A stretch of DNA of 32,000 bases, taken from NCBI RefSeq assembly GCF_001465295.1, contig NZ_CP011034.1, positions 2,610,001 through 2,642,000 of the forward strand. Direction: 5' to 3'. The position numbers were made by a program, and so were the translations under genes. Origin of the DNA: Pseudoalteromonas translucida KMM 520. GTDB taxonomy: Bacteria; Pseudomonadota; Gammaproteobacteria; Enterobacterales; Alteromonadaceae. Within the stretch, counting starts at the first letter, position 1; each line of letters starts with the position of its first letter. Of the stretch, positions 2,352-31,100 are shown in pieces. Under the pieces are notes generated by a model that was not told the DNA's origin, searched no databases, and saw only the letters and a program-made list of their open reading frames with translations.

Positions 2352-3020
2352 CTAGGAACTAAGAGCAGCGGGAATACTTGGGGCTGAGTGAGCAAGTTGC
2401 GTGTATTTTTCGCGTAACTGGTTCATTTTATCGCTACTTTTATCTGTACTATAGGCTCTAAATAAAGTTAATACTTTTAAAATACCATGATAAATATCTT
2501 GCTCAGCAAGTGCACCGCTGAGCCTGCGGGCTTTAATATAAGGGGTCCAAAAACTAACTGTTAATTTAAGCGTGTGTGCAAGTTCGAGCGCATCTTGCTC
2601 GTTAATCGCAATCATTTCACTATCGCGTAAACCAAGTATTATTTTACGCACCTGTTCTAAAAGCTCTAGTTGAAAATCAATATAAGCCTGCTTTAGCTGC
2701 GTATCTCGCGCCAAAATATCGCCTAAATTGTCGTAAAAAAAGTGGTAGCGCCACATCAGTTCAAATAACGAATCTAGATATACCGTTAACTGACTAAATG
2801 CATCATCATTTTTATTTATAGGTTTAAAATGAGTGCTCAAGTGCTCACTATACAGCGCAAAAATATGGCGAATAATGTCTTCTTTATTTTTAAAGTGGTA
2901 GTAAAGATTACCCGGGCTCATGTTTAAATGCGAGGCTATATGATTAGTTGATATCGCTCGTTCACCATGCTCATTAAACAATGAAATACTGGTGTGTATT
3001 ATTTTATCCTTGGTATTCAT
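2352..3020 (-). CDS. TetR/AcrR-family transcriptional regulator
   Basis: The N-terminal HTH signature is typical of TetR_N (KIIHTSISLFNEHGERAISTNHIASHLNMSPGNLYYHFKNKEDI), followed by an all-helical C-terminal ligand domain. The ligand and target are unknown. Confidence 0.85.
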   Translation of the reverse strand: MNTKDKIIHTSISLFNEHGERAISTNHIASHLNMSPGNLYYHFKNKEDIIRHIFALYSEHLSTHFKPINKNDDAFSQLTVYLDSLFELMWRYHFFYDNLGDILARDTQLKQAYIDFQLELLEQVRKIILGLRDSEMIAINEQDALELAHTLKLTVSFWTPYIKARRLSGALAEQDIYHGILKVLTLFRAYSTDKSSDKMNQLREKYTQLAHSAPSIPAALSS

Positions 3021-3197
3021 ATACTAACACTCTATTTTATTCAACAAGTTACATTTCGCACAATAAGTTATCTAGTATAAACAAAAACAGCATAATTAAA
3101 CACTCTGTGTAATAGCTTAGTCGTGATAATTAAAGCCACTTACTAGGCTGATTTGTATAAAAAACACTGTTACACTAATGCTAAAAATAATACATAG

Positions 3198-3701
<504 letters not shown>

Positions 3702-3708
3702 ACTAACG

Positions 3709-3729
3709 AGCGCATTACTTAAGTGCGCT
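3709..3729. terminator. weak hairpin between convergent coaD and membrane paralogue 3
   Basis: AGCGCA (3709-3714) pairs with TGCGCT (3724-3729) around a 9-nt loop that contains the stop codon of the minus-strand gene. There is no clear U-tract on either strand. Confidence 0.25.
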
Positions 3730-4239
3730 ATTCAAACTATTAACTCGCATTTTTGTTTTATTATATATCCAGGCTAACCCTAATAAATCTTTATTAATAA
3801 TCAGCACCAAAGCCATTAGTAAGTCAATTGAGATAGTACCTATAACGTATACAGCCCAAAACCACCAATAATCAATATTACCAATAATAACAGTGTCATA
3901 ATGCATGCCTAAAAATAGCATCGCATTAATGCTCATTCCTGTAATTAAATATATAAGTGCCGTAGGGATCGTAAACTTTGTTTTAATACCCCAAATTATT
4001 ACTATTAATATGGTAACAATATCAAACATAAAATAATCTAAATAGGTAACTGTTTTTAAGCTTAGTACTGCACTAGAAGAGTAAGAAACCATCATAATAA
4101 GCGATAGCTGTACCCTACTTTTATCAGGTTTATTAATACTCGACGATAAATTAAATAAAAAGGCGATTAGAAATAGCCAAGTAACAAAGGCGCTTATGTT
4201 TTCACCTAAATCAACAATAAACCTTAAAAAATCAATCAT
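3715..4239 (-). CDS. uncharacterised five-helix membrane protein, paralogue 3 of a tandem triplet
   Basis: 174 aa with about five hydrophobic segments. It shares SAF..W.FL.AF.F, M[YH][YF]D, N.[DE].W[WL].W.VY, IDLLM and [KR]D[FL]LGL with the two upstream genes. Its ATG overlaps the preceding stop (ATGATTGA, 8 nt). I recognise no family. Confidence 0.75.
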   Translation of the reverse strand: MIDFLRFIVDLGENISAFVTWLFLIAFLFNLSSSINKPDKSRVQLSLIMMVSYSSSAVLSLKTVTYLDYFMFDIVTILIVIIWGIKTKFTIPTALIYLITGMSINAMLFLGMHYDTVIIGNIDYWWFWAVYVIGTISIDLLMALVLIINKDLLGLAWIYNKTKMRVNSLNSALK

Positions 4240-4765
4240 TCGAGTTTATACCCACACAGCTATTATCATCTTTGCCTATTAATCTTAGAACAGATGATTT
4301 TAGCTTTATCAAACCCAAAAAGTCTTTATTTATAAAAAGCACTGTAATCATGAGTAAATCGATAACGTTAACGCCAATTGAATAAACACTCCAAAGCCAC
4401 CACTCGTCAATATTATTTAATACATACAAGTCGTAATACATCACTAACATTAACGACGAATTGAGCGTTAAACCAATTAAAATATAATTAATAGCGGGGC
4501 AATTCTTTATTGAAGAGGTTTTAAAGTAAACAATTAATAATACTGTAATTGTTAATAAATCATAAAGAGTAAAATTGAGGTATACATTGCTTAATATAGA
4601 AAGTACTTCACTCATGGAGTACGAGAAAAGCATAATGCCTGCAATATATAAAAGTGACTTATTTGTGTTATTTATACTTGAAGCTAAGCAAAATAAAAAA
4701 GCCATTAAAAAGCCCCATTGAATAAATGCACTTATATAATCGGCCAAAATAAAGTCTACGTACAT
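4232..4765 (-). CDS. uncharacterised five-helix membrane protein, paralogue 2 of a tandem triplet
   Basis: 177 aa with the same helix pattern and motifs (MYYD, NIDEWWLWSVY, VIDLLM, NKDFLGL). It starts 4 nt after the stop of paralogue 1 and has no SD of its own, which suggests translational coupling. Confidence 0.75.
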   Translation of the reverse strand: MYVDFILADYISAFIQWGFLMAFLFCLASSINNTNKSLLYIAGIMLFSYSMSEVLSILSNVYLNFTLYDLLTITVLLIVYFKTSSIKNCPAINYILIGLTLNSSLMLVMYYDLYVLNNIDEWWLWSVYSIGVNVIDLLMITVLFINKDFLGLIKLKSSVLRLIGKDDNSCVGINSND

Positions 4766-4769
4766 ATAA

Positions 4770-5303
4770 TTAAGGGGTATAATTTATTTTAGATTTTTTG
4801 AATAAAGACAAGGTTTTGTTTTTTAGCTTGTGTAAGCCAAGAAAGTCTCGATCGACAATTAGAGCAACTATCATTAATAGATCTATTATATTTACCGAGA
4901 AAGTATAAACATCCCAAAAAAGCCAGGGCTCTCGGTTTCCACTTACATATATATCAAAATACATACATAGGCTAAATATAGAGTTTAGTACTAACCCTAG
5001 AATGATATATAAAAAAGAACAGGTTGTTTTTTTTGTCACGAAATAAGCTAAAGCTAGTATGAAAATAGTCGCATAGTCATATAAAGCCCAATCTAAATAT
5101 ACTGAATTTCGAACTGACAACCAAGTAAAAAAGTAATCTGAGATTGTATACGAAGCCATCATGATAAATGAACTGAGCAATAAGGTTGTATTTCTTTTTA
5201 CACCTAATGAAAAAACAAAGGTGTTAAAAAAAAATGCCATCAAAAACCCCCAAGAGGCAAAAGCTGACAACGAAAACAAACCAAAAAACTCAGTTAGAAA
5301 CAT
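4770..5303 (-). CDS. uncharacterised five-helix membrane protein, paralogue 1 of a tandem triplet
   Basis: 177 aa with the same helix pattern and motifs (MYFD, NREPWLFWDVY, IIDLLM, DRDFLGL). It starts 21 nt after the stop of the small Gln-rich ORF. Confidence 0.75.
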   Translation of the reverse strand: MFLTEFFGLFSLSAFASWGFLMAFFFNTFVFSLGVKRNTTLLLSSFIMMASYTISDYFFTWLSVRNSVYLDWALYDYATIFILALAYFVTKKTTCSFLYIILGLVLNSIFSLCMYFDIYVSGNREPWLFWDVYTFSVNIIDLLMIVALIVDRDFLGLHKLKNKTLSLFKKSKINYTP

Positions 5304-5324
5304 TTAGTACCCATTTATTATCTC

Positions 5325-5516
5325 TTATTTAGGACGAACAACTATCACTCCACCACGCTGAAGTTCTGTACCGCTAGCCGCCATAGCTTCTTGAGAGAAG
5401 CTTACTGTATCAGATTGCAGGGTTTTAGGGCTAGCAGTTTGTTCCATTGCTGGCTTTAATTGTTGCGTTTTATTGTATGCTTGCATTTGTAGTTGGCTGT
5501 TAGCTGAAACTTGCAT
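5325..5516 (-). CDS. small Gln-rich soluble protein (63 aa), unknown function
   Basis: The internal ATG at 5516 is preceded by AAGGAA with a 7-nt spacer (acAAGGAAtaatcacATG). The sigma54 promoter lies inside the longer 124-aa reading of the track, so the short form is favoured. Product: MQVSANSQLQMQAYNKTQQLKPAMEQTASPKTLQSDTVSFSQEAMAASGTELQRGGVIVVRPK. It has 10 Gln, no Cys/Trp/His, and no signal peptide or TM segment. Confidence 0.55.
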   Translation of the reverse strand: MQVSANSQLQMQAYNKTQQLKPAMEQTASPKTLQSDTVSFSQEAMAASGTELQRGGVIVVRPK

Positions 5517-5654
5517 GTGATTATTCCTTGTAAGTGTTTTTGTATTATTGGCGTAATCTTGTATTACACCTTTAAAAGGGGTAATTAAATCTACCTTATA
5601 TTTAGCAGCAACCTTCTCATCAAGACTGTTACTGCATTTTACACTTGTAACAAA

Positions 5655-5670
5655 AGCAACCACTGTGCCA
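5655..5670 (-). promoter_or_regulatory. sigma54 (RpoN) -24/-12 promoter
   Basis: The minus strand reads T-TGGCAC-AGTGG-TTGCT, matching every conserved position of TGGCAC-N5-TTGCW with canonical GG/GC spacing. It lies about 75 nt downstream of the argH(A) terminator and 139 nt upstream of the ATG at 5516. Confidence 0.7.
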
Positions 5671-5741
5671 ACTTTTAATTGACAGTTAAAAATAACCATA
5701 AAACTTTATACTTATACCTAAAGTGAGTGTTTTTTACCCAT

Positions 5742-5774
5742 AAAAAAACGCACGAGGGTAACCCGTACGTTTTT
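5742..5774 (-). terminator. rho-independent terminator of argH(A)
   Basis: The minus-strand RNA is AAAAACGUAC-GGG-uua-CCC-(uc)-GUGCGUUUUUUU: a GC-containing stem with a 2-nt bulge and one G-U pair, followed by 7 U. It starts 14 nt after the argH(A) stop. Confidence 0.7.
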
Positions 5775-5787
5775 ACATCTAGGGAGT

Positions 5788-7653
5788 TTAAGCCACGAAT
5801 TTACACGGGATCTCCGCTTTATTACTTAGCTTTAAAATATATTCCATTGCTACTTCATCGCAGTTTTCTTTACGTAAACAAAGCTCACAATCTTTCATTA
5901 CTTTTTCTGGTAAGCTTTCTTTGGTACAAAAGCTAAAACGCTGTTTTTCAAAAAAATCGGGGACTCGGGTTAGCACTATTACTCTATTTAACGCCAATTT
6001 TTTGGCTTTCGCTAATAAATGCTCAACTAGCTGCCGCCCTTGTCCTGATACTGCGCTTTGTGGATCTATACCCAAAGAACGAATTTCCGCCAAACCTGTG
6101 TCGTAAATATACAGTGAAGCACACCCAGATACTTTACCGTTAATTTCGGTAACAGCAAATTCGTTAATCGAATGCACCATATCGCTTTTAGCGCGTGGTA
6201 GGTTTTCGCCTACCGTAGCCCAATGCTGAACCAGTTTAGCTATCGACTCAACATCGTCTAAATTAGCATCACGAACCGTTATTTGCTGTTTTTTTTTCGC
6301 TGCTTTAATAGCGCTGGTTACTTGTTCAATTGATGTTCCGCCAAGTGCTTGACGCGCTTTAATACAGGCGTCAATTTCTAGTACCGGATAAACATCATCT
6401 GCAAATACATCACTTACCGATTTATATTGCTCAAGCGATAAGTCTTCCAGTGTTTTACCTTCACTAATGGCCAACTGTACCAGCACACCTACAATATGGT
6501 GCCCTTCTCTAAAAGGTACGCCCTTAGCTACTAAGTAGTCAGCAAGCTCAGTTGCATTTGCATGGCCACCTTTTGCCGCTGCAAGTGTACGTTCGCCTTT
6601 TACTTTAATTCCTTTAATACACGCTTGTGCCATATGAATACAGGCAAGCCACGTTGGCATAGCGTCAAATATGCCCTCTTTATCTTCTTGCATATCTTTA
6701 TTATAAGCAAGTGGCAGTGCTTTTAGGGTCATCATCATGGCGCTAAACGCACCAAAAACACGTCCGGTTTTACCACGAATTAGTTCCAGTGCATCAGGGT
6801 TCTTTTTTTGTGGCATTAACGACGAGCCCGATGTCACATTATCTGCAAGCTCTATAAATCCGGCTTCGCCTGAGTTATAAAAAATAAGATCTTCTGACAT
6901 ACGCGATAAGTGAATCATCGAAATAGACGCACAACTTAATAGCTCTACTACAAAATCACGATCAGATACGCCATCAAGGCTATTTTTAGTGGCTCCTGTA
7001 AAGCCTAAACCTTGTGCCAATGCTTGACGATCAATAGGATAAGCCGTACCCGCTAATGCACCACTGCCCAGTGGGCAAAAGTTCATCCGCGCTTTAGCAT
7101 CTTGCAGGCGGCTTTCATCACGCTCTAGCATTTCTACGTAAGCCATACACCAGTGACTAAACAATACCGGTTGTGCACGTTGTAAATGCGTATAACCAGG
7201 TAAAATAGTCCCTAGCTCACGCTCTGCTAATGCAACAAACTCACCCTTTAACTGGGCAATAGCTTTTAAAATATGATCGGCAGTGTCGCGACACCACAAT
7301 CTAAAATCGGTGGCTACTTGGTCATTACGGCTGCGCCCTGTATGTAATTTTTTAGCTAAATCACCTACTTTTTCGATTAACGCAGCTTCAACATGTGAAT
7401 GAATATCTTCTGCGCCTGAAGTTGCTACCGCTTGTGGATCTGCTTTTACTTCTTCAAGCAGTTGGTATAATGCTGCAACTAATTCTTGGTGCTCGTCACT
7501 TGATAACACATTAACTTGCTCAAGTGCGCCAGCCCATGCAACAGAGCCTATAATATCTTGCTCTGCTAATTGATAATCGAAAGGAAGAGAGTCGTTAAAT
7601 TGCTTAAACGCCTCGTCTGGACCCGTAGAAAAACGCCCGCCCCATAATGCCAT
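5788..7653 (-). CDS. argH: bifunctional argininosuccinate lyase fused to a C-terminal GNAT (N-acetylglutamate synthase-like) domain
   Basis: 621 aa. Residues 1 to about 458 are colinear with E. coli ArgH ([46 protein letters not shown] signature). Residues from about 465 to 621 (nt about 5788-6270) form an acetyltransferase fold with the acetyl-CoA motif [12 protein letters not shown]. This argH(A) fusion is described for Moritella and other marine gammaproteobacteria. Confidence 0.93.
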
Positions 7654-9841: not shown

Positions 9842-10609
9842 CTATGGTGTAATTTTAGTTCCGACATGCTTGCCTTGCAGCAAAGCTGTTAAGTTTTCTG
9901 GCTTTTGCCAGCTGGAAATATACACACCGCGTCGTAAGTGTTGGGCAGCGTGAAGACTGGTCTTAACTTTGACCTCCATCCCGCCCACAATTACTCCTTC
10001 ATTTATTAAAGTATCAATGTGTTTTGTGTCTAGTTGATGTAAAGGCTGCTTATTTGCATCAAGCACAGCTTCAACATCGGTCATAAATATTAGTTCTGCG
10101 TTTAAGTTATTGGCAATTGCAGCGGCGGCTTCGTCAGCATTAACGTTATACCAAAGGCCTTGTAGGTCAAAACCAATTGAGCTGACAATTGGCATACGGC
10201 CAATTTTTAGTAAATCGTTAATAATCGAATCATCGTTACTGGTGCATTTACCCACTAAACATAATGCTTTTAGCTTTTGCGTAGCAGTAACACCGGCTTC
10301 GTACAAACTTAAACCAACTGGTTTATGGCCAGCATTAATTGCCGCACTCATTAATTGTTTATTAGCACAACCTGCAAGCGCGCCAACTATGTAAGGCATT
10401 TGCTCTTTAGGGCTAATACGTAAACCTTGATGCTTTGCGCTAGCAAAACCAGCGTCTTTAAGCCAAGTGTCTACAAGCGCGCCTCCGCCATGCACAATGA
10501 CAAACTGCGCGTTGTGCTGCTCATTAAGTACTGAAAATAATGCTTTAGCCGCGTTTTCGGTATTAAGTACAGCGCCACCAAGTTTAATTACCCAGGTTTT
10601 TTTACTCAT
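9842..10609 (-). CDS. argB: acetylglutamate kinase
   Basis: 255 aa, colinear with E. coli ArgB: VIKLGGAVL, VIVHGGG, GLRISP, NVNADEAAAAIA, GGMEVKV. The start abuts the argC stop (TAAATG). Confidence 0.95.
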   Translation of the reverse strand: MSKKTWVIKLGGAVLNTENAAKALFSVLNEQHNAQFVIVHGGGALVDTWLKDAGFASAKHQGLRISPKEQMPYIVGALAGCANKQLMSAAINAGHKPVGLSLYEAGVTATQKLKALCLVGKCTSNDDSIINDLLKIGRMPIVSSIGFDLQGLWYNVNADEAAAAIANNLNAELIFMTDVEAVLDANKQPLHQLDTKHIDTLINEGVIVGGMEVKVKTSLHAAQHLRRGVYISSWQKPENLTALLQGKHVGTKITP

Positions 10610-11805: not shown

Positions 11806-11843
11806 GTTATGCAATTAAATTGATTACTTATTTTGGATTTTTT

Positions 11844-12998
11844 ATGTCTTTACCTTCATTTATTTCTATGTACCAACAATTAATTGCAGCACCTTCTATT
11901 AGTGCCATTGAAGATAGCCTGTGTATGAGTAATAAAAATGTTATTGAATTACTGGCACAATGGTGTGAAAGCTTAGGCTTTAGCTGTGAAATAATTGAAT
12001 TAGAAGGCGGCAAAGGTCGCTATAATTTATTAGCTAAACGCGGTAAAGGCGATGGTGGATTAATGCTCGCTGGCCATACCGATACAGTGCCATTTGACGA
12101 TAGCCGCTGGAATCATAATCCATTTAAATTGACCGAGCACAACAACAAACTATATGGCTTAGGTAGTATTGATATGAAAGGCTTTTTTGCTTTTGTACTG
12201 CAAGCTATTAGTGAACTTGATGAAAAACAGCAAACTCAGCCTATTTTGATCTTAGCCACCGCCGATGAAGAAACAACAATGGCCGGTGCTCAACAAATTT
12301 GTAAACATCCAAATTTAAAACCGGATCGCTGTATAATTGGCGAACCCACTGATATGACTCCGGTATTTACACATAAAGGACATATGAGCACCGCAATTAG
12401 AGTAGTCGGACGCTCAGGCCATAGCTCAGATCCCGAACGTGGTGTTAACGCCATCGAAGTAATGCACAAAGTGATTACAAAACTACTGATCTTAAAAGAA
12501 CAGTTAAAGCATAAATATTCAATAGAGCACTTTGAAATACCCTATCCAACCTTAAATTTTGGTAATATTCATGGCGGCGACAACGCGAACCGAATTTGTG
12601 GTTGCTGCGAAATGCATATAGATATGCGCCCATTACCGGGCTTAAGCATGCAAGAACTGCAAATGTTAGTACTTGATGCAACTCACGAAATAAACCAGCA
12701 ATACCCAAATGCCGTAAGCGTAATTGATTTACACGAACCAATCCCGGCATTTACTGGTAGCACCGATAGCGCTTTGGTTAAACTAGCCGAAAAAATAGCG
12801 GGGCAAAAAGCGATAGCGGTAAACTACTGTACTGAAGCGCCATTTATTCAACAGCTTGGTTGTGAAACCATAGTAATGGGCCCCGGCTCTATAAACCAAG
12901 CGCACCAACCTGATGAGTTTTTAGCAATGGAAAAAATTAAGCCTTCACAGCAAATTATCACTAATATAATTAAAGCGAGTTGCTTTAGCTTTTCTTAA
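11844..12998 (+). CDS. argE: acetylornithine deacetylase
   Basis: Colinear with E. coli ArgE from [20 protein letters not shown] (E. coli LPPFIEIYRALIATPSIS), plus [52 protein letters not shown]. The track start at 11820 is a TTG adding 8 residues not seen in ArgE; ATG 11844 is preferred. Confidence 0.93.
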
Positions 12999-28294: not shown

Positions 28295-28324
28295 CTACCC
28301 TGTCATTAAAATGCGACAGGGTAG
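28295..28324. other. perfect 10-bp hairpin spanning the ubiA stop codon, between convergent genes
   Basis: CTACCCTGTC (28295-28304) pairs with GACAGGGTAG (28315-28324) around a 10-nt loop that contains the ubiA stop. There is no U-tract on either strand, so a terminator function is uncertain. Confidence 0.5.
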
Positions 28325-29184
28325 GAAAACAATAAGCCGATAAAAAAGGCTAATCCTACATAATGATTGTTTAAAAACGCTTTAAAACAATCGGTGCGTG
28401 CGCGTTGTTGAATAAGCACTTGTTGGTAAACTAACAATACAATAGCAACACTAAGACCAAGCCAATAACTCAGCCCAATATTATTAAGTGCTCCTATCGC
28501 GATCATTAACGTAATAAAGGCTAAATTAAGTCCCCCTATAATGTGACGATCGTATTTACCAAATAAAATAGCGGTAGATTTAACCCCTATTTTTAAGTCA
28601 TCATCTCTGTCGACCATGGCATACATAGTGTCGTAGGCTACCGTCCAGCAAATATTAGCAATAAATAATAGCCAAGCCTGTATAGGAAGTGCATTAATTG
28701 ACGCCATAAAAGCCATAGGAATAGCCCAGCCAAATGCTGCACCTAACACCACTTGCGGTAATTGCGTGTAACGCTTCATAAACGGGTAACAAAACGCTAA
28801 AGCAAGTGCACCAAAAGAGAGCAGTATTGTATTTACACTAAGCATTAACACCAGTAAAAATGCGACTGTTATTAATAATATAAACAAACTAATCGCTTCA
28901 CCACTGCTAACCTGCCCTGAAACTAATGGCCGCTGCATTGTACGTTTAACCGAACCGTCTATTTTTCTGTCGGCAAAATCATTAATAACGCATCCGGCGC
29001 TGCGCATTATCACAACACCCAGCGTAAATACTATAAAGTTAGTTAAACTTGGCATTCCTGCATTTGCTAACCACAGCGCCCAATATGTGGGCCAAAGTAA
29101 TAGTAAAGTACCTATTGGTTTATCTATACGCATGAGCGCAATATAATAAGGGATATGACTTGGGGTTAAACGCGCTAATTTCAT
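28306..29184 (-). CDS. ubiA: 4-hydroxybenzoate octaprenyltransferase
   Basis: 292 aa. UbiA prenyltransferase motifs [23 protein letters not shown] (E. coli [23 protein letters not shown]) and [16 protein letters not shown]. Multi-pass membrane protein. The start overlaps the ubiC stop (ATGA). Confidence 0.95.
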
Positions 29185-29726
29185 GAGTACAAATACGCTC
29201 CTGGTAAAAACACTTCACACACTAAAAACTTATAATCTTTAAGCGAAAATAGACTGCGACGGCCAAGTAAAATTTGCGATGGTAACTTTAATTGTGCAAC
29301 AAGCTGTTGTAATGAATGCTGGGTATTAAAGCGCGCAATTTCTATATCTGTACGGGTTAATTGTGGGTCCTGAAAAATCACATCGCCTAATGGTCGCTCC
29401 CCCATATTATGTAATTTATTATTTGCGGCGTTAACGCTTGCTGGCAACCAGCTTTGCGCATAAACAACCGGTTTATTATCGCAAAGTAAAAGTACCTCTC
29501 GGTTAAGCGCAGTAGTTTGCGTACAGCCTAATAATTGTTGTTGCTCTGCACTAAGCTCAAACTCTTGCTCACTAAGTACTTTTACACTAAAACACTGTGA
29601 GCGACTTTTTAATTTGGCTGTTAATGAATGCGGTTCAAATAACCACTCTTGCTCTGCACTCGATAAATCACTAAACAGTGAGGCACATTGCCAATCGGCA
29701 GATAATGAAACAGGGAAAGTAATCAC
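29181..29726 (-). CDS. ubiC: chorismate pyruvate-lyase
   Basis: 181 aa. It sits immediately upstream of ubiA and is translationally coupled to it. LTAKLK, REVLL, PLGDVIF and [19 protein letters not shown] parallel E. coli UbiC (MTKRFE, REILL, PLGRYLF, LLLTELFLPASPLY). The start is a GTG without an obvious SD, so the 5' end is uncertain. Confidence 0.82.
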
Positions 29727-29880: not shown

Positions 29881-30279
29881 ATGAAAAAAACAGTATTCGC
29901 CGGCCTTTTTGTACTTATCGCAAGTTTAGTAAGCTTAACCGCACGAGCAGACTCGACTGTGGGTTACTTTGGTTTTGAGCCAGACATTATTACCAACTAC
30001 ATTGGCGCATCGAGTAAAAAAATGGGCTATGTGCGCATTACTATTGATTTAATGCTTAATAACGCATCAGACATTGCAACCGTAGAGCACCATACGCCAT
30101 TGCTACGCGACGCCTTAGTTGAAATTTTATCTAAAGAACCTGAAGATAAAATAAAATCGCTCAGTGGCCGTGAAGAAATAAGAGTAAAAAGTGCAGTAAA
30201 ACTTAAAAGCTTATTAAAAGAAGAAACGGGACAAGAGATCATCCGTGAAGTCTTGTTCACCAAGTATTTATATCACTAA
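29881..30279 (+). CDS. secreted or membrane-anchored FliL-like (flagellar basal body-associated protein family) protein
   Basis: 132 aa. Signal/anchor peptide MKKTVFAGLFVLIASLVSLTARA. The rest follows the FliL pattern: FEPDIITNY, YVRITIDLML, HTPLLRDALVEILS, SGREEIRVKSAVKLKSLL, VREVLFTKYLY. Confidence 0.7.
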   Translation: MKKTVFAGLFVLIASLVSLTARADSTVGYFGFEPDIITNYIGASSKKMGYVRITIDLMLNNASDIATVEHHTPLLRDALVEILSKEPEDKIKSLSGREEIRVKSAVKLKSLLKEETGQEIIREVLFTKYLYH

Positions 30280-31100
30280 TTGTGGCTTTTAGTTCTTAAC
30301 ATAGACGTGGTAACGGCATAAGCCATACCGCTAATTAACCCGCCTAAATGCGCCCAATTAGCCATTCCTATAAACAACACATCCGCAAATCCAAGCACCA
30401 ACCAAATTAGCATAAAACCAATAATTGCAGTGCTTACTAATGCAGGTTGTTTAGGGTTTAAGGCGCTGTAAATCCAGCAAAAGCCAAGTAGCGCATACAC
30501 CACACCACTTAATCCGCCAAAGTTAGGGCCAACCATTAAATATTGTGCCCAATTGCTGATTAAGGCACTTACCACAAATAGCCCTATTAAGCTTAGCTTG
30601 CCACATTGTTTTTCGATGTTATCGCCAAGCGACACCCACCAAACTAAGTTAAATACAATATGCATGGCGCTAAAGTGCACTATAGCGGGAGTAATCCACG
30701 TTAATGGCTCGGCAGGATTAAACTGCAACGTGGTATATATTGTTTCAAACCCACCCAATAAAAATGCAATATAAATAATAATACTTAAAATGCTAACCGT
30801 TTGATTAAGCCAGCTAAGCGCTTTAAATCGCGCCATTAAATTCAGCGATTGCCCTTGATACTTAAGCGGTGATTGCGTGCTTCCTACTTCCCAAGATGCT
30901 TGCTGATAGCGGGCATGATTGGGATTTTGCGTAAACTCCGCCCAAAGCGGTTGCACTTGATGAAAGTGCTCAGGTAATACGCTAATAATTACTGTGCTAC
31001 CATCTGTTGAACGTAACTCGCCTTGCAAGCCTTGGCTTTTTAAATAGTCTATAAAGCCTTGTGCAGCACGCGGATTATTTAAACTGCCAAGCTCTATCAT
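30276..31100 (-). CDS. glpG: rhomboid intramembrane serine protease GlpG
   Basis: 274 aa, colinear with E. coli GlpG: NPRAAQGFIDYLKSQG, HFSAMHIVFNLVWW, catalytic GGLSGVVYAL, and AHLGGLISG (His). The start overlaps the glpE stop (ATGA). Confidence 0.93.
   Translation of the reverse strand: MIELGSLNNPRAAQGFIDYLKSQGLQGELRSTDGSTVIISVLPEHFHQVQPLWAEFTQNPNHARYQQASWEVGSTQSPLKYQGQSLNLMARFKALSWLNQTVSILSIIIYIAFLLGGFETIYTTLQFNPAEPLTWITPAIVHFSAMHIVFNLVWWVSLGDNIEKQCGKLSLIGLFVVSALISNWAQYLMVGPNFGGLSGVVYALLGFCWIYSALNPKQPALVSTAIIGFMLIWLVLGFADVLFIGMANWAHLGGLISGMAYAVTTSMLRTKSHN

Follow-up and report, generated by a model that had tools for sequence, protein, structure and literature searches.

A small precursor-like peptide gene and three five-helix membrane protein paralogues in Pseudoalteromonas translucida: evidence for an exchangeable peptide-partner cassette

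In a 32,000-nucleotide stretch of the Pseudoalteromonas translucida KMM 520 chromosome I (NZ_CP011034.1, positions 2,610,001 to 2,642,000; here called the window), three consecutive genes encode related membrane proteins with five transmembrane helices (5-TM proteins), designated A, B, and C. The unit is larger than these three genes and comprises S-A-B-C, the small upstream gene S having been underweighted in a preliminary description of the locus. Comparison of related loci indicated that the C-terminal tail of S and the adjacent gene A are exchanged together as one cassette. We tentatively favor the reading, plausible though short of probable, that S is an exported polymorphic peptide, A its cognate membrane immunity protein, and the other 5-TM proteins extra paralogues. 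The four genes are as follows.

3715-4239, minus strand: C, last-position 5-TM paralogue, 174 aa
4232-4765, minus strand: B, second-position 5-TM paralogue, 177 aa
4770-5303, minus strand: A, first-position 5-TM protein, 177 aa, the partner travelling with the S tail
5325-5516, minus strand: S, 63-aa precursor-like peptide, MQVSANSQLQMQAYNKTQQLKPAMEQTASPKTLQSDTVSFSQEAMAASGTELQRGG-VIVVRPK

The open reading frame (ORF) finder over-called S as a protein of 124 aa (5325-5699). Comparison with 17 related loci placed the true start at the ATG at position 5516, which is preceded by a conserved AAGGA ribosome-binding site, and the gene ends 21 nt before A. We found 141 homologues of S, all from Pseudoalteromonas and some of them named 'Orphan protein'. 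In these proteins a nearly invariant, Gln-rich leader formed by the first ~45 to 50 residues is separated by a conserved junction, L-x-R-G-G (L-Q-R-G-G; ELQRGG), from a tail of 7 to 14 residues, of which 80 distinct versions were present in 121 sequences. A second tally with a broader delimitation of the tail yielded 107 tails of 9 to 19 residues, 66 of them distinct. These were composed of 20% Gly, 18% Pro, and 12% Lys and contained a hydrophobic doublet or triplet, none included Cys, and 65 of the 66 distinct versions terminated with [RK]P[KR]. AlphaFold predicted no folded domain for S (pLDDT 59.5, pTM 0.23), and no signal peptide was found on the S protein of the window. The combination of an invariant leader, a hypervariable tail, and no predicted fold points to a peptide precursor, as far as sequence can tell.

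The S protein of Pseudoalteromonas sp. P1-9 (locus L016) also speaks for a precursor. In this strain a single 5-TM gene is accompanied by an S of 174 aa, in which the leader is followed by nine tandem 15-residue units, each consisting of RGGGIIKT and a 7-residue spacer (DSYANLN, DPQENLN, and similar). The L-x-R/G-G junction is kept before every unit, and the protein terminates exactly after the last IIKT. The residues R-G-G-G-I-I-K-T-D are unchanged in all units and each of their codons has two to four synonymous variants, while the amino acid varies at four of the six other positions of the spacers. An invariant peptide despite synonymous codon change indicates that selection acts on the short peptide unit. 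Two independent sequencing runs gave the same repeats, with the contigs breaking inside the repeat. The pattern is the signature of a multi-core precursor peptide, an assignment by architecture and not by homology. Like cyanobactin PatE, fungal Kex2-processed repeats, and alpha-factor, the L016 protein has identical cores, nine in number, and short spacers that each end with a basic residue directly before the core; unlike these, it shows no homology to them, lacks associated protease or macrocyclase genes, and represents the one lineage with repeats so far. A ubiquitin- or Pup-like reading of S, with RGG plus a removable tail, was rejected because L016 repeats only the tail unit and not the body.

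The array was surveyed by scanning one genome per species, which gave 18 loci (numbered with the prefix L), all of them from Pseudoalteromonas. In every locus with sufficient flank, the gene order was argG-argHA, S, an A-type gene, further paralogues, and coaD-tetR-thiI. The number of 5-TM copies per locus was one in L016, three in the window, L001, and L008, and eight in L006 and L017; broken copies were present in L003 and L010. Split or truncated members, either pseudogenes or products of sequencing frameshifts, were located at L003 6519-7026, L010 6992-8593, and L007 9166-9603 and fit an ongoing gene death in the array. Two of the loci, L002 (JBCCHA010000129.1) and L008 (JBCCHA010000115.1), are short contigs of a metagenome-assembled genome labelled Bacteroidota. 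Both are typical S-A-B-C loci with two different alleles and probably represent mis-binned Pseudoalteromonas DNA from at least two strains.

Pairs of these loci revealed the exchange of gene A, its gene trees being at odds with those of the flanks. L006 and L017 have flank proteins that are 95 to 99% identical (dS ~0.3) and A proteins that are 56% identical, with dS saturated. For L006 and L005, the flank dS was 1 to 2.5 and A was 94% identical, with a dS of 0.22. When DNA identity was followed in a sliding window, the flanks of L006 and L017 showed 92 to 97%, with a drop to 55 to 65% that begins in the 3′ part of S and spans A, a recovery in copy 2, and another fall in copy 3; two gene-sized indels were also seen. 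In the comparison of L006 and L005, a block of 92 to 97% identity, starting ~50 nt upstream of S and ending with A, stood out from a background of ~80%. Across 78 genome pairs, the similarity of the S tails correlated with the identity of A (Spearman coefficient of 0.55; Mantel p=2e-4). The corresponding coefficients were -0.13 for the S tail and copy 2 and 0.07 for A and copy 2, though the latter two are only 5 bp apart. The identity blocks together with the correlation between tail and A indicate that the S tail and A form one exchangeable cassette of ~750 bp, and the downstream copies assort independently of it. Such co-inheritance and exchange would be the behavior of a cognate pair, as the favored reading proposes.

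The synonymous divergence of the S leader was four-fold below that of argHA (pS of 0.13 vs. 0.54 in 36 pairs), with equal pN. An RNA element as the cause was rejected, since the S region gave no conserved structure in RNAalifold (-1.45 kcal/mol); repeated homogenization by exchange is the likelier explanation. A stretch of ~17 nt within the leader (CTACAATCTGATACAGT, coding for TLQSDTV; window positions 5400-5440, minus strand) was identical at the DNA level in 11 of 11 aligned loci, even in a distant clade whose argHA is only ~79% identical in protein. Codon bias may account for it, or the stretch may serve in binding or recombination.

In a tree of 79 full-length 5-TM copies, all first-position genes fell into one clade, together with copies from phages and integrative elements. 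The downstream copies formed separate orthology groups in a roughly collinear order, and there were no close within-genome pairs. B belongs to a position-2 orthology group found in most genomes of the main clade, and C groups with the last-position copies of L001 and L008. This tree shape indicates an old expansion with gene birth and death rather than recent duplication or concerted evolution, and the A-B-C array of the window is a minimal version of it. The preliminary description had viewed the three genes as old duplicates kept under selection and had proposed an estimate of dN/dS between them. The estimate agreed with this view: dS between the paralogues was saturated and omega was 0.16 where measurable, and orthologues of A, B, and C each occur in other species. 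The omega values of A, B, and C were 0.07 to 0.2, indicative of purifying selection, compared to 0.03 to 0.05 for the flanking genes, and their dN was 3- to 10-fold that of the flanking genes.

The ORFs of A, B, and C were confirmed as three real genes on the minus strand. In pairwise alignments B showed 45% and C 38% identity to A, and 48 columns were invariant across the alignment of the three proteins. These include the W-W-VY, IDLLM, and D-x-LGL blocks to which attention had been drawn at the outset and also cover SAF..W.FL.AF.F, M-x-x-D, and N-x-D-x-W-W-x-W-x-VY. A hydrophobic similarity of low complexity, which the preliminary description had named as one outcome that would speak against it, was ruled out because BLASTP with composition-adjusted statistics returned E=2e-26 for A vs. 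C, which argues for homology. The GC content over the array was 29% vs. ~40% elsewhere in the window.

The predicted layout of five helices was recovered in an AlphaFold2 model of A based on a 72-sequence alignment (pLDDT 85.3, pTM 0.77), which has transmembrane helices at residues 2-33, 39-62, 68-90, 95-120, and 128-150 and a C-terminal helix at residues 157-168. Counting charges in the 72 homologues according to the positive-inside rule, we found that loops 1 and 3 and the C-terminal tail were net positive and that the N terminus and loops 2 and 4 were net negative, a pattern that indicates an N-out/C-in topology. Residues D76, N107, W127, W130, and D153 are near-invariant across the whole 5-TM family, with no conserved His or Cys among the near-invariant residues, and D117, Y133, and D141 are present in more than 85% of the sequences. 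In this topology, D76, D117, W127, W130, and Y133 are located on the periplasmic side, and the conserved set is oriented mostly towards the periplasm. Among 98 A orthologues, TM1 and TM2 were best conserved, and the two periplasmic loops were most variable. The presence of variable loops and conserved acidic and aromatic residues on the periplasmic side, opposite a basic-ended peptide, is consistent with a recognition role of A.

The junction of A and B has the sequence TAA-ttat-ATG, and that of B and C is ATGATTGA, which agrees with the 4-nt gap and the 8-nt overlap reported before; the Shine-Dalgarno sequences are weak at both downstream starts. These features suggest translational coupling and had led to the proposal of a stoichiometric hetero-oligomeric complex, in which A, B, and C would be co-produced subunits of a transporter or channel and S a small accessory subunit. 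The maintenance of first, second, and last orthology groups across many species and the identity of the conserved polar residues in all copies would also fit this proposal. However, the same site holds from one to eight copies, gene-sized indels separate close relatives as copies are swapped or lost singly, phages carry a single copy, and A and copy 2 evolve independently (rho of 0.07), which is unexpected of interacting subunits. We therefore gave up the proposal of a stoichiometric complex as formulated before and consider a hetero-oligomer of this kind very unlikely. Variable copy number, gene-sized indels, gene-by-gene mosaicism, and fast dN would, as sequence traits, rather be expected of an exported peptide with immunity-type partners.

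The 5-TM family and S had no recognizable relatives among curated families or solved structures. A, B, C, and S searched against Pfam-A, NCBIfam, PADLOC, and PHROGs gave a best E value of 0.006, all matches being far under the curated cut-offs, and none of the PADLOC models of known anti-phage defense systems had a component that matched. An hmmsearch with the 72-sequence family profile against PDB sequences resulted in 0 matches at E<=1, and Foldseek with the model of A against solved structures in a best E value of 0.37 (TM<=0.41). The best match among the BFVD viral models was weak (E=0.012) and concerned uncharacterized phage membrane proteins. An exhaustive HMM search of 1.84 billion representatives retrieved only 109 clusters, all of 50 to 203 aa and none with a fusion to another domain, and 384 clusters were found in a 90%-identity database, the named ones being nearly all from Pseudoalteromonas. 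This search, recommended in the preliminary description for the family distribution, returned no characterized family. No match was obtained with tblastn against 50,697 phage records and 72,556 plasmids or in scans of IMG/VR with the family alignment and two mobile-element members.

Some clusters already bear the UniRef name 'Membrane protein triplicated sequence', which stems from earlier genome annotation and shows that the triplication had been noticed by an annotator. The family lies outside every curated library tried, but the triplication is not new as an observation. The name 'heme O synthase-like polyprenyltransferase' given to some homologues by JGI was rejected, as A to C have no match to PF01040; the genuine UbiA of the window scores 1e-65 for the UbiA domain, and A has five transmembrane helices vs. 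~9 expected of UbiA. Literature searches uncovered no account of the locus and no experimental or expression data, and a match on 'triplicated' concerned triplicate cultures only. Both protein families are currently unannotated, and the 5-TM protein, having no solved or annotated relative, may represent a new membrane fold for peptide recognition.

The most distant members of the family lie outside the arg-coaD site and are part of a three-gene module encoding an S-like small protein, one 5-TM protein, and a protein of 86 to 128 aa with an N-terminal transmembrane helix. In L019 and L021-L024 the module adjoins an integrase gene and precedes AlpA/PyocinActivator/GPA genes, in L029 and L030 it is situated between integrase and CI repressor/Cox, and in L032, a Colwellia contig of 34.6 kb, it accompanies a complete set of P2-like genes, baseplate to portal. 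L031 and L027 carry it in the chromosome of Thalassomonas haliotis and in one related genome, after uppP. The hosts are Colwellia, Thalassomonas, and unidentified hosts. The family of the third protein has only 18 members, from Thalassomonas and Colwellia, and many of them are on contigs of 34 to 37 kb. These mobile-element versions and the third protein likewise matched nothing in the curated libraries, including PADLOC and PHROGs. Some elements carry further genes of interest. Those of L021 (15056-16522) and L022 (8439-9905) encode an OafA-like acyltransferase (Acyl_transf_3 + SGNH), a typical surface-modifying lysogenic-conversion gene, and that of L029 (GCA_000374485.1) is flanked by two genes with a YafO toxin domain (112-492 and 10135-10605).

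The phage S-like proteins retain the leader motif SDTVNISQEAL and end with ...AGGGVYVPP.... Those of L029 and L028 have textbook Sec signal peptides (predicted cleavage between MKKVILFVLLSVSVSVQA and ED...) in place of the leader and keep the GG-hydrophobic(-PP) motif at the C terminus, indicating that the C-terminal peptide is the shared functional element. It also follows that at least some versions reach the periplasm and that the 5-TM partner must act after export and is not simply an exporter. This bears on a toxin-antitoxin pair, with A as a membrane-damaging toxin and S as a cytoplasmic disordered antitoxin, which would be in line with a small disordered protein encoded directly upstream of a membrane protein and with the occurrence of the pair on mobile elements. 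S-like partners with Sec signal peptides would be periplasmic, though, up to eight 'toxins' per antitoxin are implausible, and the tandem tail repeats are left unexplained, which makes such a pair highly improbable.

A position beside a phage integrase is typical of genes expressed in lysogens, and the order of small peptide, 5-TM protein, and small membrane protein recalls toxin-immunity-release operons. The module resembles lysogenic-conversion cargo, such as superinfection exclusion genes and arbitrium aimP, in its location beside the integrase and lysogeny control genes of temperate P2-like phages and in its small membrane or secreted products, but none of its proteins matches known exclusion, defense, or arbitrium components. 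One could envisage a phage-derived superinfection-exclusion or anti-phage defense module, made up of a small periplasmic protein and membrane proteins, that was fixed in the Pseudoalteromonas chromosome and expanded there. The site of the module in P2-like phages and integrative elements, with integrase on one side and the repressor/AlpA region on the other, agrees with this origin, as do the low GC content (29% vs. ~40%), fast evolution, and exchange by recombination of the chromosomal array. We nevertheless consider it decidedly unlikely: no component has a PADLOC or PHROG match, the 50,697 phage records and IMG/VR contain no match, and a tandem, sequence-conserved 8-residue unit is unexpected of an exclusion factor. 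The module position beside the integrase can equally be counted in favor of a peptide with cognate immunity.

Among characterized systems, the loci of class II bacteriocins and microcins, which have double-glycine leaders and orphan immunity arrays (the pneumococcal blp region is one example), share with S and A a small precursor with a conserved leader and a Gly-Gly at its putative end as well as a membrane gene directly downstream, and with the array a variable number of paralogues and mosaic cassette exchange at a fixed site. They differ in that there is no relation in sequence or fold, the S leader comprises ~50 aa and the core only 7 to 14 aa, a C39-peptidase ABC exporter is missing nearby, and none of the extra paralogues is an allele of the cognate gene. 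The ELQRGG motif of S also has a spacing unlike that of the double-glycine consensus (ELxxxxGG or LSxxELxxIxGG). The GlyGly-CTERM/rhombosortase system, from the same group of marine Gammaproteobacteria, has a similar order of Gly-Gly, hydrophobic, and then basic residues at the C terminus, but the hydrophobic stretch of S covers 2 to 6 residues and is no transmembrane helix. This candidate was rejected because the tails are too short for a helix of ~20 residues, the S of the window has no signal peptide, and A has no Rhomboid domain.

The AgrD/AgrB and ComX/ComQ pairs resemble S and A in having a conserved N-terminal part and a short hypervariable mature peptide that co-varies with a neighboring membrane protein and in the exchange of alleles between species at a locus of the core genome; AgrB, at ~190 aa, is likewise a small, polytopic protein of the membrane. 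They differ from S and A, which occur in a Gram-negative host and show neither an AgrB or polyprenyl-synthase domain nor a conserved catalytic His/Cys pair in A. We rejected A as an AgrB, given that there is no AgrB match, no conserved His or Cys, and no kinase or regulator in any context of the module, and equally as a ComQ, given the lack of a polyprenyl-synthase domain. The wider idea of pherotype signaling is that the S tail is a secreted strain-specific signal, that A is its receptor or a periplasmic-side processing factor, and that the paralogues sense other variants. The length of the peptide (7 to 14 aa), the contrast of a conserved leader and a hypervariable C terminus, the fixation of the locus in every genome, allelic cassettes swapped between species, and a multi-core precursor all suit this idea. 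The agr, comQXPA, and fungal pheromone loci resemble the S/A locus in these traits, and a phage copy beside the lysogeny module recalls arbitrium. Yet the 5-TM proteins of 165 to 200 aa have no output domain and no fusion in the 1.84 billion representatives, no kinase or regulator accompanies the module on phages, and up to eight receptors without a transducer are hard to rationalize. On balance, signaling of this type seems rather unlikely.

Returning to S as an exported peptide with immunity provided by A, we propose the following course, in which four points are inferred: that S is cleaved, that its leader-type form is exported, that the peptide is toxic, and that A, B, and C are protective. 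S would be made ribosomally as a precursor, its conserved leader followed by a short C-terminal peptide that differs between strains and reads GGVIVVRPK or VIVVRPK in the window. It would be exported and cut at the conserved L-x-R/G-G junction, and the short, basic-ended peptide would act outside the cytoplasm, either on the envelope or after uptake by cells. A would be the cognate five-helix inner membrane partner, recognizing the peptide allele-specifically at its acidic, Trp-rich and aromatic periplasmic face and protecting the producer by binding or excluding the peptide. B, C, and further paralogues would be additional protective specificities kept in variable numbers. Tails such as NTILLPRPK and GVVYLPPVKPK and the phage sequences GGGVYVPPP and VYIPPN presumably resemble the YLPRP/VYIPQP core of insect proline-rich antimicrobial peptides, which target the ribosome.

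Several observations weigh against this course of events. No peptidase-ABC exporter or other processing gene is present within the 32-kb window, whose only ABC system, an ABC-2 type pair at a distance of ~12 kb, lacks a C39 domain. An unmodified peptide of 7 to 14 residues is short for a bacteriocin and more typical of signaling peptides. The downstream copies form clades of their own and are not nested among the A alleles, so that a simple capture of cognate immunities from other strains would not account for them. Throughout the genus the locus occupies a single fixed core-genome site, in the manner of pherotype loci, whereas most bacteriocin loci are accessory. The co-variation of S tail and A could partly be due to their 21-bp linkage, and the literature searched holds no experiment or expression data on the locus. 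The alternative offered in the preliminary description, in which the genes are an array of the immunity type within a bacteriocin or polymorphic toxin locus, fits better than the complex, but not in the sense that the downstream copies are captured A alleles, and export or processing genes are absent nearby.

Systems that combine a secreted polymorphic peptide with a cognate partner in the membrane and additional paralogues are known. What the libraries and literature searched did not describe are the components, a long leader rich in Gln, a multi-core precursor in a Gram-negative host, carriage by phages, and a site fixed throughout the genus. It is possible, though doubtful, that these belong to a phage-disseminated peptide system with a leader-bearing or Sec-exported precursor, a short strain-specific peptide rich in Gly, Pro, and Lys, and allele-specific five-helix recognition at the periplasmic face. 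If so, it would constitute a genus-wide self/non-self code, of the toxin-immunity or the pherotype kind, with cassettes that pass from species to species and to temperate phages. Every Pseudoalteromonas genome would then carry a polymorphic peptide/partner locus that could govern antagonism or recognition at the strain level. The genus is in wide use for marine ecology, studies of biofilms, and cold-adapted biotechnology. As both families are unannotated, genome-mining tools are blind to the locus. Peptide-based social systems are well known in Gram-positive and rare in Gram-negative bacteria, and the phage-borne version, if confirmed, would tie temperate phages into competition or communication by peptides in the ocean.

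In the window, the unit is flanked by thiI, a TetR regulator gene, and coaD on one side and by the argC-B-F-G-H(A) operon on the other. Two further elements were located at its borders.

5737-5774, minus strand: intrinsic terminator of the upstream argCBFGH(A) operon, 13-bp stem + U7
3709-3729, minus strand: candidate short hairpin AGCGCA...TGCGCT, spanning the C stop, between C and the convergent coaD

The terminator is strong (dG of -19.3 kcal/mol, z=-3.4; none of 200 shuffled sequences folded equally well), which indicates that S-A-B-C is a transcription unit of its own. The hairpin was read from the sequence and was not called by a consensus terminator scan. A consensus promoter scan was uninformative (9 sites vs. 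12.5 expected), and Rfam returned nothing credible over positions 3000-6000. In a distant Pseudoalteromonas clade (L013-L016, L018, L025, L034), a Wzi-type capsule-assembly gene, not present in the clade of the window, is inserted between the array and coaD, and L025 has an additional 97-aa gene at this position.

A GlpG-type rhomboid protease (30276-31100, minus strand) and UbiA/UbiC (28306-29726, minus strand) are also encoded in the window, as housekeeping functions with no link to the locus. The argH gene before the terminator (5788-7653, minus strand) is fused to a C-terminal domain of the N-acetyltransferase type, giving an argH-argA-like fusion of 621 aa, and an argE-like gene at 11820-12998 is divergent from the argC-B-F-G-H(A) operon.

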